The notes under the pieces: generated by a model
Databases searched by the model: none
Told to the model about the DNA's origin: nothing
The model's input: the letters and a program-made list of their open reading frames with translations, nothing else
Position numbers and translations under genes: made by a program
NCBI RefSeq assembly: GCF_049075655.1
Contig: NZ_CP157522.1
Location: forward strand, 1,598,949-1,662,948
DNA from: Methanothermococcus sp. Ax23
GTDB lineage: Archaea; AGJL01; Methanococci; Methanococcales; Methanococcaceae
Direction: 5' to 3'
DNA length: 64,000 nt
Part shown: in pieces, positions 3 to 7,313 of the stretch
Position numbering within the stretch: the stretch's first letter is position 1
How the letters are laid out: every line of letters begins with the position of its first letter

Positions 3-197
3 GTAAAGGAATCCCTAAGAAACGCTGGAGCGGATGAATCCCTCGTAGATGATGTAATAAAAAGAATTGAAAATAGAATTCATGATGAGCTCACCACAGC
101 AGAATTAAAGATGATGATTATAATGGTATTAAGAAGAATAAATAGTCAGCTACCAACGGATAAATCCGTTGGCTTGCCCTTCCAACTCCCTCAATAA
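3..197 (+). pseudogene. 3' part of an ATP-cone domain protein (5' end outside window), interrupted at 144/145 by an IS200/IS605-type mini-element; now ends in an element-derived tail
   Basis: Frame from base 3 reads VKESLRNAGADESLVDDVIKRIENRIHDELTTAELKMMIIMVLRRINS, an ATP-cone pattern. Removing 145-425 restores the in-frame ending ...RRINSEVAQQYTTNHS* (426-463). Confidence 0.7.
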
Positions 198-425
198 TAA
201 GGGCGGAGGACATTAGGCTGGCTGACAGGTCAGCCCTGCATTATTTTAATAATAAACCCTTTCTAACCGTACCCACTCTATTGAGTTTCGTGCCTTAGGG
301 TATGATTAATACTATTACATCTATATTATATAAATTTTTTTGGCATTCCTCCCATCTCGTAAGAGATTTTACAAAACATTGTTTTGTATAACGATTGAAA
401 TCGTGGGCTTCCTGCCTAATAATTC
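145..425 (-). mobile_element. Non-autonomous IS200/IS605-family mini-element (PATE/MITE-like), 281 bp, no ORF
   Basis: On the minus strand the right end is CAAG-ccaacggatttatccgttgg-tagcTGAC and the left end has GAAG-cccacgatttcaatcg..tggg, next to target TCAC (426-429). No target duplication; removal restores the host ORF. Confidence 0.85.
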
Positions 426-471
426 GTGAAGTAGCTCAGCAATATACTACAAACCATTCATAAATCTTATT

Positions 472-1275
472 TTATTTTTTATGGGTCAATTTATAAATTA
501 AATTACTTAATTCCACTATTTTTTTAATATTTAATTTAAAAACCCTCTCGTTTAAATCAAATTCTGATAAGTTATTCAATATATCTTTCAGCTCATCACG
601 ATTTAAACCAATTTCATGAGATGAGTTGATAAGTGCTTTTTTAGCAGTTTTGTTTTTATGTTGGAATAGAGCTCTCACTACCTTCTCAAAAAATTCTTCA
701 TCTTCTAAATGGAAAAGTTCATTAGGCTCTTTTTTGGTAATTCTTACAATTGCAGAATCTACTTTTGGTTTTGGTGAAAATGCAGATGGTGGAACTTTAC
801 ATATAAATTCTACATTTGCGTTATATTGCACAGATACGCTTAATCTTCCATATTCTTTTGTTCCTTCCTTTGCCACCATTCTTTTAGCAAATTCATATTG
901 ATACATCAAAACTGCAACCTCAAAATCAGTTTTTAGAAATTTAAATGTAATCGGGGATGATATTTGGTAAGGTAGATTTGCTACTATTTTGTTAAAATTT
1001 AATTCATTTAGATTAACTTTTAAAGCATCATTCCAAATTACATCAACATTTGGATGCTCGGCAATTACCTCTTCTGCAAAAGGCTCCAATCGCTTATCTA
1101 ATTCGATAACATATACCTTTTTTGCATTTTTTGCCAATTCTTTTGTTAATATCCCTTTACCAAGACCGATTTCTAAGACTATATCGTTTTTATTTACATT
1201 GGCAGCATCTACTGCTTTTTTTACAATATTTTTATCTTTTAAAAAACACTGTCCTAATTTCTTATTTTGTTTCAT
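472..1275 (-). CDS. ksgA: 16S rRNA adenine dimethyltransferase KsgA/RsmA/Dim1
   Basis: [16 protein letters not shown] and VANLPYQIS motifs. True start taken as ATG 1275; the 19-aa extension in the ORF track comes from a repeat element. Confidence 0.93.
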
Positions 1276-1283
1276 AATCCCAC

Positions 1284-1353
1284 ATCTAGGTTCCAAAACG
1301 AGCGATAGCGAGTTTTGGACTTTGGATAGCAACCTTTTTTAAAGGTTGCTTAT
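1284..1353 (+). repeat. Double-hairpin interspersed element, copy A, flanked by a 42-bp direct duplication (1242-1283 / 1354-1395)
   Basis: taggtTCCAAAAC-gagcgatagcga-GTTTTGGA ctttggat AGCAACCTTT-ttt-AAAGGTTGCT; flanks identical at 41 of 42 positions. Confidence 0.9.
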
Positions 1354-1473
1354 AAAAACACTGTCCTAATTTCTTATTTTGTTTCATAATCTCACTAAAA
1401 AAATAAAAATTATAATATTAAAAATTAAAATTAAAAATTATTTTAAAAAGATAAAAATACAAGAGAGAGACAT

Positions 1474-3450
1474 CTATCTTAATAATTCAATAATCTTTTC
1501 TTCAATCATTTCCTTAGGTTTATTTGTTATATTGGCAAGTCCATCTGCGAATATAACGGCATATTTCAAAACATATTTCTTTTTCTGCTCTTCTTCCTTT
1601 TCTTTTCTTATTCTTGATATATGTTTTTCAAGCCCTCTTGCACATATCATCAATGCCTGCCTTATTTCATTAAATATCTCTTCATTTTCCTCGCTACTGC
1701 ATGCCACTGCCTGCTTTCCAGCTGATGTATATGGAATATGAGTAGATATTAAATTTACAAACACCGTTAATGGAACATCTTCTTCGCTCCTAAGTCCATA
1801 TCTTCTCCAATTTACGCTTTTAACGGCATTTGTTATGCCACATCCCGATGTATCAAACAGTAATGGAACATGGTTTGCAAATCTCATTATCTCCATTTTT
1901 CTTGTATTATCCGATATTCTTCCTGCCTCTCCACCGTATGCCAGCCCTACCTCAACTGCGAATGGAATTCCTCCCTTATAGGTTTTTGGTCTCCTTGTAA
2001 GTGTCATTACAAATTCAGGATTAAGTGTTTTTAAAGATTCCTTTATATTTTCCTCGCCAATAGGTCTTAAACCAGCTGTGGATGGTGCCATGAAGTCCAT
2101 ATCTTGAATTACCCTAACAATCAACTCTGCATCATTCCAATCCATGTTTTTCGGATTCTTTTTTAGAAGATTCTTTATTTCATTTTTGAATCTTTCGAGC
2201 TCCTCATTTGATACCATTCCCATATCCACTAATGAATTTACAAATTCTTTTGGACTTTTGGTAATGTTTCTAAGTTTTCTCCTAAACTCATCCATTAACG
2301 AAGCATTTAAATAATTTTTCTCTGCAAATTCAATGAAATTTTCAGGTTTCTTTTTAAAGTGCTTTTTAATCTCTTTCAGCGTTTCTTCATCTAATTTGTC
2401 AAGTAAATAATCCATTATTAAATATTTTAAATAATACATTTTTAACTCGGATAAACTATCAGGAAGGGTATTTATTATGTCCTTAACCTCTGAAATTTCC
2501 TTTTTATCCACATATTTAGAGAATTTTTCAATATAATCGTTAATTTTTACATTTAAATAACAATCCACTACAATATCCCAAAATGTGCTGTCCCTGTAAT
2601 TTTCAAGTAGTTTATCCCTTAAAATATACTCTTGGAGCTCCTTTATTCTCTTGGATGTCATCCTTGATAACTCACTTGTGAGCATGCTTGAAATTTTTAT
2701 AGACTCAGTCCTTCTTGATATGTATAGGAGCTCATCTGGGGTCAAACCATAAGGATGGGGTTTCATTTCCTCAGGTCTTTCAGGAATATCTTCAACTGTC
2801 CTATCAAAAACTACGGTTTCCTCTGGGTCGATAAGGGTTATTTTAGCATGGGGTGTGGATAAGCTTATTCTTCTCAAATATTCAAAAGGTCCCTGCTCTC
2901 TTCTGTTGTATGTAACTTCTTTAAATTCTCCTTCAACTTTTGTCCCTCTCCAAAATCCTTCTCTTATTTCATGAGAAACAACATCTCCTTCGTTTTTTTC
3001 AATGCTCATCTTTATTTCCATTGTATGAATTTCCCCATCTCCTGTTGATGTGATGATTTTCAAAGGTTTTCCTGTTGTCACTTGTGCAAATAAAAGGACT
3101 CCCGCAGCACCAATACCCTGCTGACCTCTGGATTGAACAAGTCTGTGCATCTTTGAACCTGCAAGCATCTTACCAAAAACCTTTGGAACAAACTCAGGGG
3201 GAATTCCTGGACCGTTATCCTCAACAACAACTTTATAATGGTCTGCCCCAAGTTTTTTAATTTCTATGTTAATATCTGGTAAAATTTCCGCTTCTTCACA
3301 GGCATCCAATGAGTTTGTTACGAGCTCGTGAATTATGGTAGTCATACTTCTTAACTTACCACTGTATCCAAGCATGTGTCTGTTTTTTCTAAAAAACTCG
3401 GAAATTGAATGCTCTTTAAATTCATCAAATATGACATCGCTTTCAGCCAT
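1474..3450 (-). CDS. top6B: DNA topoisomerase VI subunit B
   Basis: GHKL motifs [23 protein letters not shown]; RFANHVPLL transducer domain; start MAESD preceded by ggtga RBS. Confidence 0.95.
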
Positions 3451-4053
3451 TTTTTTCACCGATAATAATATGATTAAAATAATAAAAACGTATAATAATA
3501 AGAAATTTTTCAATATATATTAATATTCAACATATATTTATTCAACCTATATTTAAATGATACTATAAAAATAGCAATTCTAAATATTCAAAATACATCC
3601 AATATTCATGTTATATAGATGGAATTAGCTTTTATAATTATATTATAATATCGTCAAATAATAAGTTGTCTAAATATTTATATAGATATTACTATTTTTC
3701 CCAATACTATTTTCTCAACGATTATTATTGGAAAAATGTGTATATAATATCATTACCAAAAATGTTTATTTATTTTAAAATATATTAAAATTACTAATAC
3801 TAATATTAAAAATTTGATTATAATATATTAATGTAGATAATATCATTATTAAATTTATAATTGGGTTTATATACTATAACAGTAAATGTATTTGCGAATA
3901 TTTATGAAAATTATTGAATGAATAATAATATTGTATATTTGGATATATTATTTTGATTTATTTAGACATTGCATTGGCAACTATTGTATGTTTATGTTAA
4001 AATTCGGTAATAGGTATTATAACTAATCCATACATAACAAGAGGCGATGATAT

Positions 4054-5340
4054 ATGGGGATGGAAGTAAATTCAATAATTGATGCGCTAAACACCCTAAC
4101 TACTGCGGGGGATGTATTCTTCCTGTGTGTTATGGGGGCAATGGTATTTATTATGCAATTGGGTTTTGCAATGTTGGAATGCGGTCAAGTTAGAAAGAAA
4201 AATGTCGTTAATGTTGTAATGAAAAACATGATTGATTGGTGCGTTGGTTGTATTTCATGGCTATTTATTGGTGCTGTTTTATGCACTTCACTAAATCCAG
4301 GAGATTTCATAGATTGGTGGAGTGAGATATTCACAGCCACTCCATTTTTAGAAAATAACGGAATTGAGTTGGCAAATTGGTTTTATGGATTAGTTTTTGC
4401 TGCAACAGCAGCAACCATTGTCTCAGGAGGGGTTGCTGAAAGGATAAAATTTAAAGCATATATTCTAATTTCGATAATAATTACAGTGTTTCTATATCCA
4501 TTCTTTGTTTATTTGGGTCCTTGGGGTGCAGGAGTTATAAATTGGCATGACTACGCAGGAAGTTTAATTGTTCATGGTTTAGGTGGATTCTTAGCATTGG
4601 GGGCAATTTTAGCATTGGGGCCAAGAATTGGGAAATTTAAAGATGGAAAACCAGTTCCAATTCTAGGACATAATATCCCAACAGCAGTTTTTGGAGCGTT
4701 TATATTGGCATTTGGGTGGTATGGATTCAACGTAGGTAGTGCATTGGCATTAAAAGACATTTCAGGGTTAGTATGTGCAACAACAACATTAGCAATGGCC
4801 AGCGGAGGAATTGGAGCATTGATTACATCCAAAAAAGACCCACTATTTATGGCAAATGGTATGGTTGCGGGTTTAGTTGCAATTTGTTCGGGAACTGATA
4901 TAGTAAGCCCAATTGGCGGGTTGATTATTGGATTGGTAGCAGGAGCTCAGGTTCCAATTGTATTTAAGTTTCTTGAAAATAAGAGATTGGATGATGTTTG
5001 TGGCGTTGTTCCCGTGCATGGAGTTGCAGGTGTCATTGGAGCAATTTTAGCGGGAATCTTTGGAATGCCAATATTTGGAGGACTTGGAGTAAATCCAAGT
5101 GATATTGTGAGTATTGTTGGAAGTCCAAACATTGATTTCTTACTATGGCAAATTTTCGCATCCATATTTTGTATAATTTACGGAACAGTTCTTGGTTATG
5201 TGATTACAGTTGCAATTGGTTTAAAATGTGGTGGTCTAAGAGTTGGCAGAGATGCGGAGCTCATGGGGCTTGATTTAGTGGAACATAAAATATCTACATA
5301 TCCTGATGAAGATGAACATTTTGTGATAAAGGATAAATAA
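4054..5340 (+). CDS. amt: Ammonium transporter (Amt family)
   Basis: [56 protein letters not shown] and C-terminal ELMGLD motifs. Confidence 0.95.
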
Positions 5341-5350
5341 GGTGATTCTT

Positions 5351-6796
5351 GTGGAATATCTAAAAAAATATGGAATTGGCACAAAATCAATAATTGTGGT
5401 ATTGTTATTTGCATCGGTTCTTTTAATCATTTGGATTATGGGAGCAAGTGCTGGAAACATAGGGAGTCAAGTTATAGGCGTTGTTGTTGGATTACTAATT
5501 GGTTTAAGCGTTTCTGTAATGATTACGCGAAAATATATGATATTAATAAACGATTTGGTAAATGCCGTTGAAGAAGTATCAGCTGGGAATCTTAATGTTA
5601 GAGTGGAAGGCAGATATGATGGGGAACTCGGGGTCTTAGTTGATGGATTTAACAAAATGGTAGCGAATCTTAAAGAACAAAAAAATGAAATAAGCCATGG
5701 ACAAAAAATGACATGGGTTCTCATAAAGGATTTGAAGAGAGTGATGAGTAAAGTTGCAAATGGAGATTTAACTGTAAGAATGAATGAAAGTATGGTGCAG
5801 GATGGAGTTAAATTAAAAAGTGTAGATATTCAAAAACTTATCAACAGAACTTTGGACAATGTTTCACACATGATAAAAGAACTAAAAGAGGAAGTTATTA
5901 ATTTAAACGAAGATATTAGTATAATTAAAGAGGAATTAAACCGAGCTAAGGAAGCATCCAGCCAAGTTGCAGACGCTACACAACAAGTAGTAGTAGCAGC
6001 AAACGACCAATCTGCCAAACTTCACGATATTTCACAGGAACTTGAAGGAGTATCCTGCATTACTGAGGAGGTATTTAATGCGGCAATAGATGGTGTTGAG
6101 GCTACAAAGATTGTGGAAGAGAATTCAAAAGTTGGAGTTAAAAAAGTAGAAAATGCAATTGAAACTATGAGGAGAATTTCAAAAGTGATTGATGAGTTAG
6201 GTAATGCAATTCAGGACCTTGGGGTAGAAAGTAAAAAAATCAATGAAATTACAGCTCTTATCAAGGGTGTTGCAGAACAGACTGGACTCTTAGCATTAAA
6301 CGCATCCATAGAAGCGGCAAGAGCCGGTGAAACGGGAAAAGGATTTGCAGTTGTTGCAAGTGAGATAAAAGACCTTGCAGAAGAAATAGGAAGGTCAATT
6401 GAAGATATAGATGAAACCATAGTGGAAATCCTAAATAAAATTGATAAGACCACGAACTTGGGATTAATGGAAAAGGATGAAGTTGATAAAGGAGTTGTAG
6501 CAATAGATGAAGTTAATAACGCATTCTTAAAAATTAGAGATAGTGTGGATACCGCCATGCGAAAAATAAACAATATAAAAGGAAATGCCCAGAAAGCAAG
6601 TGATAGCATCCAAAAGGCACTAAATGATGTTCAGGATGTTGTTTCAATATCAAAAGAGTTTGCTACAACTGCTGAGGAATTAACAGCAAATGTTAAAGAA
6701 CAAGACGAAGTTATTGAAGAAATCAGTGGAGCCACAGAGAAAATGGTTAAAATATCAAATAAACTTGCAGAATCTGCAAGTGAATTCAAAGTATAA
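5351..6796 (+). CDS. Methyl-accepting chemotaxis transducer (2 TM with short loop, 2 HAMP domains, signalling domain)
   Basis: [29 protein letters not shown] hairpin tip; two HAMP motifs ([17 protein letters not shown]); GTG 5351 follows aggtga RBS. Confidence 0.92.
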
Positions 6797-6813
6797 TATA
6801 TAATTATTGTTTT

Positions 6814-7132
6814 CTGACCTACTCCCACGACTGAAGTCGTGGGGTTCTTTTAGTAGGGTTTAACCCTACACGGGTGGCCAAGCCCACTACCCCTACCCTT
6901 TAAAGGGTTCAGGGCTACCTTATGCACTTCCAACCACTACCAGCGGTAGAGTTTTTACTAACCCTACCCATAGATACTTGGACTGGTAGCATTATTCACT
7001 ATGAAACTTCAAATATTTATGTTTTACTACTGACTAATTATAATGTCCGCCTCTCATCCAATTTCGTAAGAGATTTTACAAAACATAGTTTTGTATAACG
7101 ACTGAAGTCGTTGGCTTTCCCGGCGGTTTATC
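6814..7132 (-). mobile_element. Non-autonomous IS200/IS605-family mini-element, 319 bp, no ORF
   Basis: On the minus strand the right end is GAAC-cccacgacttcagtcgtggg-agtaggTCAG and the left end has AAAG-ccaacgacttcagtcg..ttgg, next to target TTAC (7133-7136). Confidence 0.85.
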
Positions 7133-7313
7133 GTAAAATTAATATTTATTCATACTTTTTTAATACTTCAAACTTTGGCGCTGTCTGCATATATAATATA
7201 TATGATGTGGAGCTCCTAAAAAATTTTAACTTAAATTTTATCCATATAAAAAAAGAAATGTAATGTGAAACATGATATAATAAAAAAGGCAAAACAAAAA
7301 AGGAAAAATTATA

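Follow-up and report, generated by a model that had tools for sequence, protein, structure and literature searches.

A 37-bp double-hairpin insert at one position in the left-end hairpins of two IS200/IS605-type element families of Methanothermococcus sp. Ax23

We analysed a 64,000-nucleotide stretch of the archaeon Methanothermococcus sp. Ax23 (contig NZ_CP157522.1, positions 1,598,949 to 1,662,948 of the forward strand), referred to here as the window. Its first kilobases hold two mini-elements of the IS200/IS605 type of insertion sequence (IS), one from each of two families that we call A and B. To our knowledge, the transposase of IS200/IS605 elements reads nothing but their subterminal hairpins. 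In both mini-elements the left-end hairpin is split, at the same position, by the same insert of 37 bp, which folds as a pair of hairpins; the original prediction, made from the letters of the window, had proposed as much. Copies of the insert elsewhere in the genome, uninterrupted ends of both families, and a comparison of the insert with the DNA around it show that it is a later addition to these ends, shared laterally between the families, and suggest that it multiplied with its hosts.

The features that bear on this are listed below in window coordinates. All are assigned to the minus strand of the window, which is the top strand in what follows. The boundaries of the family-B mini-element were set where copies cease to align.

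145..425, minus strand: family-B mini-element (palindrome-associated transposable element, PATE), right end at 145 and left end at 425; aligns with five other family-B minis.
153..172, minus strand: uninterrupted family-B right-end hairpin CCAACGGATAAATCCGTTGG; read directly and aligned with other family-B right ends.
351..354, minus strand: foot-side quarter (CCCA) of the split family-B left-end hairpin; pairs with TGGG at 404-407.
355..391, minus strand: 37-bp double-hairpin insert, copy 1; from sequence, fold and census.
392..407, minus strand: remainder of the split family-B left-end hairpin, CGATTGAAATCGTGGG; from sequence and fold.
426..429, minus strand: presumed family-B target and left cleavage site, GTGA on the plus strand (TCAC on the top strand), by analogy with IS608.
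6801..6953, minus strand: presumed omega-RNA-like transcript region, proximal to the right end; weak HgcC match.
6814..7132, minus strand: family-A mini-element (PATE), I_1606084f, right end at 6814 and left end at 7132; aligned with 26 other family-A minis.
6824..6843, minus strand: uninterrupted family-A right-end hairpin CCCACGACTGAAGTCGTGGG; 10 nt from foot to boundary.
7058..7061, minus strand: foot-side quarter (CCAA) of the split family-A left-end hairpin.
7062..7098, minus strand: 37-bp double-hairpin insert, copy 2; from sequence, fold and census.
7099..7114, minus strand: remainder of the split family-A left-end hairpin, CGACTGAAGTCGTTGG.
7115..7132, minus strand: 18 nt from hairpin foot to boundary, with AAAG directly 5′ of the foot and the outer-stem half CCGCC.
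7133..7136, minus strand: presumed family-A target and left cleavage site, GTAA (TTAC on the top strand), by analogy with IS608.

On the plus strand of the window, positions 355-391 and 7062-7098 hold the same 37-mer, with 35 of 37 bases alike; the two differences are at position 2 (C/T) and at a single loop base of the second hairpin. A degenerate 37-mer allowing up to 3 mismatches found 2 matches in the window, against 0.00 across 100 shuffles. By single-strand folding, the insert is predicted to form a small hairpin (5-bp stem, GTAA loop) and a larger one (8-bp stem, 3-nt loop), which are the atctc/gagat-type and tacaaaac/gttttgta-type arms that had been described at the outset. Copy 2 has a T-G wobble in the small hairpin (plus strand), and the loop of its second hairpin reads ATA, the reverse complement of the usual TAT. 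Loops that are reverse complements of each other on unchanged stems were seen both in the insert (TAT/ATA) and in the host hairpin of metagenome copies (TGAA/TTCA), which suggests inversion or strand switching at these palindromes. Neither 355-391 nor 7062-7098 matched a family of Rfam 15, at gathering scores or at E values up to 5.

Each insert splits a 20-nt hairpin, as CCCA, insert and CGATTGAAATCGTGGG in family B and as CCAA, insert and CGACTGAAGTCGTTGG in family A. Deleting the insert yields CCCACGATTGAAATCGTGGG and CCAACGACTGAAGTCGTTGG, the clean hairpins that had been expected, and true uninterrupted ends of both families exist in the genome. The insertion can be placed only to within 2 nt in family A (TT) and 1 nt in family B (T) on the top strand, because the last bases of the insert equal the bases that precede it. 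Ending in this way, the insert leaves the host stem continuous: in the fold predicted for the tnpB-sense strand, 5-6 bp of the host stem are uninterrupted and only 2-3 foot pairs are set apart. The predicted fold energy at 37 °C is −16.5 kcal/mol with the insert and −12.8 without it. Apart from the 1-2 ambiguous bases, nothing is duplicated at the junctions, and the two ends of the 37-mer form no inverted repeat.

The source genome (1.67 Mb, 32% G+C, 98.92% complete) hosts these inserts in IS200/IS605-type elements of the IS1341-like kind, which carry only tnpB (~1.4-1.6 kb), and in their mini-derivatives, the PATEs (~280-410 bp). TnpB is a guide-RNA nuclease and a much-used ancestor of Cas12. 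The family-A open reading frame (ORF) of 404 amino acids (aa), on the strand opposite to the one first read, matched the RuvC-like OrfB_IS605 domain (E 1.8e-21) and, with E 3.3e-24, the zinc-ribbon or Cas12f1-like TNB domain, with profile scores of 77 bits for PF01385 and 85.2 bits for PF07282. TNB has 22 matches across the genome, one of them in the family-B copy that adjoins an insert-bearing end at C1 372.2 kb; the left end of the mini-element at 145..425 is near-identical to that of this tnpB-bearing copy (C1 372.2-373.6 kb). Since tnpB lies on the opposite strand and the module is 5′ of it, the module sits in the left end, so the label first given to this end was correct.

In the tnpB sense, a family-A element reads TTAC, boundary, 18 nt ending in AAAG, hairpin, ATGAGAGG, a TATA-like box and tnpB, where ATGAGAGG closes a 5-bp outer stem of the left end. 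The right end has a similar hairpin followed by 10 nt. Family B has the flanking tetranucleotide TCAC and the foot guide GAAG where family A has TTAC and AAAG, and a CCMACG...CGTKGG hairpin is found at both ends of elements of both families, which have no terminal inverted repeats. TTAC or TCAC abuts the left end that has AAAG or GAAG, respectively, at the foot, and this pairing recurs in other taxa. TCAC is conserved in all family-B ends, the next base varies, and the TCAC-GAAG pairing also occurs in haloarchaeal ends.

This layout closely resembles that of IS608, a single-strand 'peel and paste' element in which, as set out in part of PMC3201880, TTAC lies 19 nt 5′ of the left hairpin, the guide is AAAG and right cleavage falls 10 nt 3′ of the hairpin. 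The ends described here likewise have TTAC outside the left end, AAAG at the foot, a spacing of 18 nt (19 in IS608) and a right end of 10 nt, with similar hairpins at both ends and tnpB inside. They differ from IS608 in that the left-end hairpin is split by 37 nt and would fold as a multi-helix junction, and in that no tnpA gene was found. No match to the Y1 transposase profile PF01797 was obtained in the genome; as a control, the profile was positive in 6 of 14 named genomes. Because no Y1 gene was found, the 'TnpA-binding' role given to these hairpins rests on the IS608 paradigm. The absence of PF01797 contrasts with ~50 IS200/IS605-type ends and signs of recent spread. At C1 ~946 kb, a tnpB is preceded by an apparent C-terminal tnpA remnant, as judged against the copy in Methanocaldococcus sp. 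28A, where a tnpA-like ORF, read from the translation, lies upstream of tnpB. Elsewhere, at C1 1542609-1544038, family-A ends (the left one with the insert) enclose ~1.4 kb without alignment to tnpB, perhaps an element that has been rearranged or that carries cargo.

A genome-wide search for the 37-mer, as had been proposed, found 33 copies, all 33 at one position within a left-end hairpin; neither a whole nor a half module was found outside such a hairpin in the genome. Among 39 family-A left ends, 30 carry the insert and 9 do not. The tnpB-bearing parents of the minis carry it too: it is present in 8 of 10 family-A ends with a full-length-type interior (absent from 2) and in the only family-B copy with tnpB (360 aa). 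That copy is one of 3 family-B ends with the insert. Another 3 are uninterrupted, with a somewhat different hairpin, and 2 have a different hairpin-rich insertion in the hairpin loop, of ~90 and ~140 nt as estimated from the alignment. Intact family-A TnpB frames occur with and without the insert (408 aa in one insert-bearing copy, 420 aa in one insert-free copy). A strict left-end pattern recovered 29 split and 10 unsplit ends. The small-hairpin loop on the top strand is TTAC in 22 of the 33 copies and TTAT in 11, and no large class of TTAC-loop hairpins was found outside the module in the genome. With the 33 copies masked, a donor search of the genome returned only short A+T-rich matches, none of them in IS ends; the best were a 15/15 match (E 0.03) and a 25-nt hairpin at C1 387889 whose stem differs on both sides (E 0.5).

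The insert is far more alike between the two window elements than the DNA around it, as the original prediction had noted. Identity is 35/37 in the insert, 16/20 in the split hairpin and 11/18 in the 18 nt from foot to boundary; in the interior it is 24/40 over the 40 nt on the interior side and 109/204 over the remainder (53-60%). Outside the 3-nt loop, all 34 insert positions are identical between the family-B copies and the commonest family-A form. TnpB of family A and TnpB of family B, by comparison, share 33-34% identity over ~238 aa. An insert identity of 35/37 beside a TnpB identity of 33% rules out retention since the families split, and the comparison indicates that the insert passed laterally between families A and B. 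The foot pairs that flank it are specific to each family, CCAA/TTGG in A and CCCA/TGGG in B.

Uninterrupted ends of this architecture are widespread. A scan of a genome collection found them at no fewer than 119 loci (81 matches were inspected), in Halobacteria, Thermoplasmata, Micrarchaeota, Methanosarcinaceae, Lachnospiraceae and others. Among the matches listed, both sub-types are uninterrupted elsewhere, one with TTAC, the guide AAAG and ATGA 3′ of the hairpin, the other with TCAC, GAAG and AGGA, and the outer stem of the left end covaries across other taxa. The nearest TnpB relatives of family A, at 64-68% identity (one from this genome, the others from Methanocaldococcus sp. 28A and 16A), have plain left-end hairpins. 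These comparisons indicate that the insert is a derived feature rather than one ancestral to the common ancestor of A and B.

The converse, that the insert is ancestral to this type of left end and that uninterrupted ends are secondary precise deletions, is in our judgement highly improbable. Recurrent precise loss within family A would give what is seen there, a scattered minority of insert-free copies beside insert-bearing near-twins, and the fold, which brings the stem halves together, could favour clean deletion. Across many phyla, however, uninterrupted ends are the rule, and 35/37 identity between families so distant in TnpB contradicts retention from an A/B ancestor. A scan of the genome collection for split ends, with 25-55 nt allowed between inner stem and foot, gave 23 loci; as we read them, one is a true same-position insertion, and its sequence is unrelated. 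Related ends thus do not all bear the insert at a divergence that matches the rest of the end, which was the outcome that would have marked it as ancestral; in this genome alone, the insert is missing from 9 of the 39 left ends of family A, and 3 of family B are uninterrupted.

Beyond the source genome, the module was absent from 22 other species of the taxonomic family, where one-mismatch matches numbered 6, against 3 for a reversed control. The module, the family-A end and the strict left-end type each gave 0 matches in these 22 genomes or in the 39 other genomes of a phylum set; as these relatives have no left ends of this type at all, they are uninformative on the ancestral state. The module had 0 matches in the genome collection, from which records near the source genome may be left out, and viral contigs gave 0 matches for the module and 0 for the family-A end. 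In metagenomes, 40 loci hold the exact module, each time at this position of a left-end hairpin; 31 loci are of type A and 9 are of type B. At 14 of these loci the flanks of the insert-bearing ends are at least 97.7% identical to the source genome; 2 lie on sites that bear the insert here too, and 12 lie on 8 sites that are free of the element here. The other loci have flanks that are only 69-94% identical to the source genome, so other organisms carry the module as well.

Within family A, the insert switches state between near-identical minis. With the insert removed, the family-A minis (n=27) are mosaics of several indel modules in many combinations, namely a 50-bp double hairpin by the right-end hairpin, a 30-bp block, a 3-bp indel, two inner-hairpin variants and the insert itself. 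On a likelihood tree of the 27 minis built without the insert, 6 of them insert-free, insert state needs at least 4 changes, and 2 of the changes are forced by well-supported branches; shuffled insert labels required a mean of 5.6 changes, and 30 of 500 shuffles were as low as the observed value. Three pairs of minis with and without the insert are separated by distances of 0-0.004. Two loci (1135540, 1146840) hold minis that bear the insert and are identical to each other, and two more (363232, 993419) hold identical minis that lack it. Identical copies of both forms, each at two loci, imply that the insert rides on its hosts rather than disabling them. Nor do other data support the view, which had been floated, that it disables them: most copies bear the insert, and close relatives in metagenomes have insert-bearing ends at sites that lack them in this genome.

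The insert is also no more conserved than the rest of the family-A end (π of 0.037 against 0.048 in the adjoining end), as would fit a passenger, and it varies only in both loops and one stem base. Inner-hairpin variants beside it, metagenome copies included, keep the stem paired, as CGAT/ATCG, CGAC/GTCG or CGGT/ACCG. These paired changes, too, speak against a disabling insert. A rival view is that the insert is a selected accessory of the left end that helps the element, as a 19-bp palindromic operator for a DNA-binding protein, an outward or inward promoter or terminator, a displayed TTAC that modulates cleavage or target capture, or a stabiliser of the fold at hot temperatures. Such a role would suit the excess of insert-bearing over plain ends in family A (30 to 9) and the presence of the insert in the only family-B copy with tnpB. 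It would likewise suit the form of the insert, in which the larger hairpin is a perfect 8-bp palindrome with variable loops, its stems and linkers invariant in 33 copies; the family-A target TTAC in the small-hairpin loop of 22 of these copies; the more stable fold with the insert; and an unrelated insert of a Halorubrum element (below) that starts with TCAC-GAGA, TCAC being the tetranucleotide of its family. We nevertheless regard an accessory role as rather improbable. A third of the copies (11/33) have TTAT in place of TTAC, conservation does not exceed that of the neighbouring end, insert-free elements are also found as identical copies at two loci, one insert-free element retains the 420-aa TnpB frame, and there is no stem covariation that would separate structural selection from recent common descent.

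On balance, and with modest confidence, we favour an insert that is a self-folding passenger, multiplied with its hosts, switched among copies by ectopic recombination or precise deletion, and carried across families. The 37 bp would be a secondary insertion into the 3′ arm (tnpB sense) of the subterminal left-end hairpin, 2-3 bp above the foot. It would fold out as two hairpins, with everything from the target tetranucleotide and 4-nt guide to the foot pairs, upper stem and loop left in place; the left end would still be functional, and a Y1 transposase, by analogy with that of IS608, would probably tolerate the insert. The insert would have arisen or landed once and have grown in number as host elements multiplied, while ectopic recombination or gene conversion, or precise deletion assisted by the hairpins, reshuffled it among dispersed copies. 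It would also have passed from one family to another that separated from it long ago and has in common with it only the conserved 20-nt hairpin. What the data show is where the insert lies, its copy number, its presence or absence among copies, its derived state, the lateral sharing and the mosaicism; which way each switch went, by what route the insert passed between families and how it first arose we infer. Of the two readings first offered, a tiny hyperparasite of the hairpins and gene conversion that spreads a modified left-end module between IS families, the second is the better supported, by the mosaic minis and the four or more changes of insert state.

Several observations weigh against this reading. 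No donor or free copy of the module that would account for its origin was found in the genome, and as no Y1 gene was found either, the genome offers no partner to which tolerance by TnpA could be linked. Insert state and inner-hairpin variant, the latter only 3-12 bp from the insert, are found in every one of the four possible combinations, which would fit repeated precise gain or loss as well as conversion. The foot pairs CCCA/TGGG occur in no family-A left end, and a conversion tract from any known A end would fail to reproduce those of family B; the homology for recombination from A to B is short, with 3-4 nt on one side and ~20 nt on the other. The metagenome scan demanded the exact module, so that the constancy of the module there was built into the search and is not evidence. 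No clean empty site was recovered (the two flanks of L100, and likewise the two of L111, map to different places in the genome), and the 8 'empty' sites could be rearrangements or chimeric assemblies.

The 37-mer is not the only small hairpin insertion in these elements. In family A, a 47-nt double-hairpin module is present inside 6 of 8 aligned copies of tnpB, all with split frames. The copies with this module are at C1 130.5-131.9, 893.0-894.5, 1074.4-1075.9, 1125.0-1126.5, 1498.2-1499.7 and 1504.3-1505.8 kb. The length of 47 nt is not a multiple of three; a 48-nt module inside 2 copies of tnpB is in frame. A 51-nt double-hairpin module adjoins the family-A right-end hairpin, and the 47-, 48- and 51-nt modules all run in one direction on the tnpB-sense strand. 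In a third TnpB family, modules lie inside the 3′ arm of the left-end hairpin, 7 nt 3′ of it or directly 5′ of it, and a fourth TnpB family has ~100 nt of hairpins within the left-end hairpin. The left ends of these third and fourth families that have unrelated modules are at C1 199.6, 336.4, 1308.4 and 1425.1 kb, and the position differs from copy to copy. More than 100 hairpins with a C-TTC-G loop, their stems variable, are dispersed over the genome, some of them inserted in tnpB. The modules built on them have an ATTAGAC-type leader, the C-TTC-G hairpin and a second hairpin of the TCGCTT... type, and occur at many unrelated sites; they may be the palindromic elements recorded for Methanocaldococcus jannaschii. 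On the tnpB-sense strand, the 37-mer agrees in architecture and in the order of its two hairpins with the 47-, 48- and 51-nt modules of family A; it differs from the TTC-loop modules in loop, leader and second hairpin and in having no copies at unrelated sites. Its origin may lie with a compact relative of the ~47-51-nt double-hairpin insertions of this genome.

A comparable insertion stands at the same stem position in another archaeon. Reading of the 23 split-end loci showed most to be chance matches or an unsplit hairpin with a second match, and identified one true same-position insertion. In Halorubrum californiense (L311/L314), a TCAC-type left end before a TnpB-like ORF holds a 55-nt insert of two perfect hairpins, with stems of 11 and 10 bp and loops of 3 nt, which begins with TCAC-GAGA, is present in a single copy in its genome and is unrelated in sequence to the 37-mer. 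It thus shares hairpin class, stem position and double-hairpin form with our insert and differs from it in length, sequence and copy number. This position in the stem could be either where a self-folding insert is tolerated or a site that some process prefers. At L298, in a euryarchaeal metagenome-assembled genome (UBA287), a right-end hairpin of this class likewise holds a double hairpin, there in its loop.

The first reading of the original prediction can be put as a non-autonomous mobile module of 35-37 nt, moved in trans by an enzyme that targets the 3′ arm of the left-end hairpin, a hyperparasite that entered families A and B separately and enters insert-free copies anew. It would account for one sequence at one position in families that have 33-34% TnpB identity, and for foot pairs that remain family-specific, as expected if only the 37 bp moved. 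Insert state that flips between otherwise identical minis, and the four combinations with a variant 3-12 bp away, are also what it would give; the other double hairpins of ~47-51 nt, present or absent in tnpB, by the right end and round the third-family left end, and the unrelated double hairpin at the same position in the haloarchaeal element, show comparable insertions. Yet all 33 copies are confined to left ends, and neither a master copy nor a free one was found. There is no target duplication beyond the 1-2 ambiguous bases, there are no terminal inverted repeats, and neither a candidate enzyme nor a gene for a Y1 transposase or a RAYT (repetitive extragenic palindrome (REP)-associated tyrosine transposase) was found. 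Thirty independent insertions are unnecessary where proliferation of the hosts explains the numbers, and a pool of modules that differ at every site is unlikely to have delivered an identical 37-mer twice. We think separate entry of such a module unlikely. Somewhat more doubtful still is a gene-less, site-specific parasite of IS200/IS605 ends, 35-37 nt long, with strand-specific, duplication-free entry and precise exit in several families, which would exploit the spread of its hosts for its own; the Halorubrum hairpin would then be a second product of the same hairpin-directed insertion process.

Other kinds of element were tried and set aside. An archaeal bulge-helix-bulge intron, in which two 3-nt bulges on either side of a 4-bp helix span both junctions, does not fit, as the junctions do not pair; this was judged by inspection of both strands and folds, with no dedicated search tool. 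A miniature inverted-repeat transposable element of a DDE transposon would have terminal inverted repeats and a fixed target duplication, and neither is present. REPs or REPINs mobilised by a RAYT were rejected on the grounds that 0 of 33 copies stand alone and that the genome has no PF01797 match. A minimal IS200/IS605 element with two ends of its own is contradicted by hairpins that are unlike each other and by junctions that are not beside TTAC. Spacer-like integration would leave a repeat-length duplication, which is absent, and a right-end guide-RNA scaffold is ruled out by the position of tnpB on the other strand.

Among known small repeats, palindromic repetitive elements of Methanocaldococcus jannaschii, some inserted in genes, were reportedly described by Suyama, Lathe and Bork in 2005. 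These repeats and the REPs and bacterial interspersed mosaic elements (BIMEs) are some tens of bases long, hairpin-forming, often clustered and in some cases within genes, and their likeness to our insert is one of architecture only: a hairpin with a 3-nt loop, a short linker and a second hairpin. The 37-mer differs from REPs and BIMEs in having no copies outside left ends and no Y1 or RAYT gene. REPs are themselves said to resemble IS200/IS605 hairpins in the abstract of PMC3333891. Rickettsia palindromic elements and others like them, according to PMC2996958 and PMC2229807, are small self-complementary insertions tolerated in protein and RNA genes. The 37-mer, by contrast, lies within a DNA hairpin that a transposase would recognise, and it moves along with a mobile element.

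The minis themselves have a precedent in the PATEs. In passages of PMC4615843, HgcC and PATE RNAs are tied to the 3′ ends of tnpB. Like PATEs, our minis are ~280-410 bp long and have a left and a right end and a hairpin with a UUCA/TGAA-type tetraloop; the HgcC (RF00062) match at 6801..6953 is weak, with 26.5 bits (E 0.0049) under a gathering score of 50. What those passages treat is a right-end-like hairpin in RNA, not insertions in left-end hairpins. No description of a split left-end hairpin was found in the literature searched, which covered no subscription papers.

The window also holds insertions of a different kind. A 38-bp direct repeat (1242-1279 and 1354-1391) surrounds a 74-bp cluster of two hairpins (1280-1353). 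The repeat spans the start of a minus-strand rRNA adenine dimethylase gene (PF00398, E 1.5e-61); as it covers the start codon and first codons, the gene start is duplicated. Further repeat-flanked insertions lie at 10987-11011/11099-11123, 41671-41692/41795-41816 and 52024-52073/52160-52209 of the window and at C1 1259579 and 1472111. They are 62-159 bp long with flanking direct repeats of 22-50 bp, and most hold one type of hairpin cluster, GGTTCCAA...TTGGA plus GCAAC...GTTGC. A long and variable target duplication is unusual for a small repeat; the 37-mer has none. The genome further has two large CRISPR arrays, at C1 ~147.8-151.1 and ~1163.6-1166.3 kb, with a 30-nt repeat and spacers of 33-40 nt.

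A split left end at ~30 copies suggests where ends of this type tolerate extra DNA, which bears on how TnpA holds the hairpin and on the engineering of IS200/IS605 elements. Pairs of elements that differ in the insert alone offer ready natural controls for tests of how such ends are bound, cut and excised. That one insert occurs in two families at 33% TnpB identity shows that end modules move between IS families independently of their genes. Together with the other hairpin insertions, it points to an as yet unexplained process that adds small hairpins to hairpin-rich DNA in hyperthermophilic methanogens.

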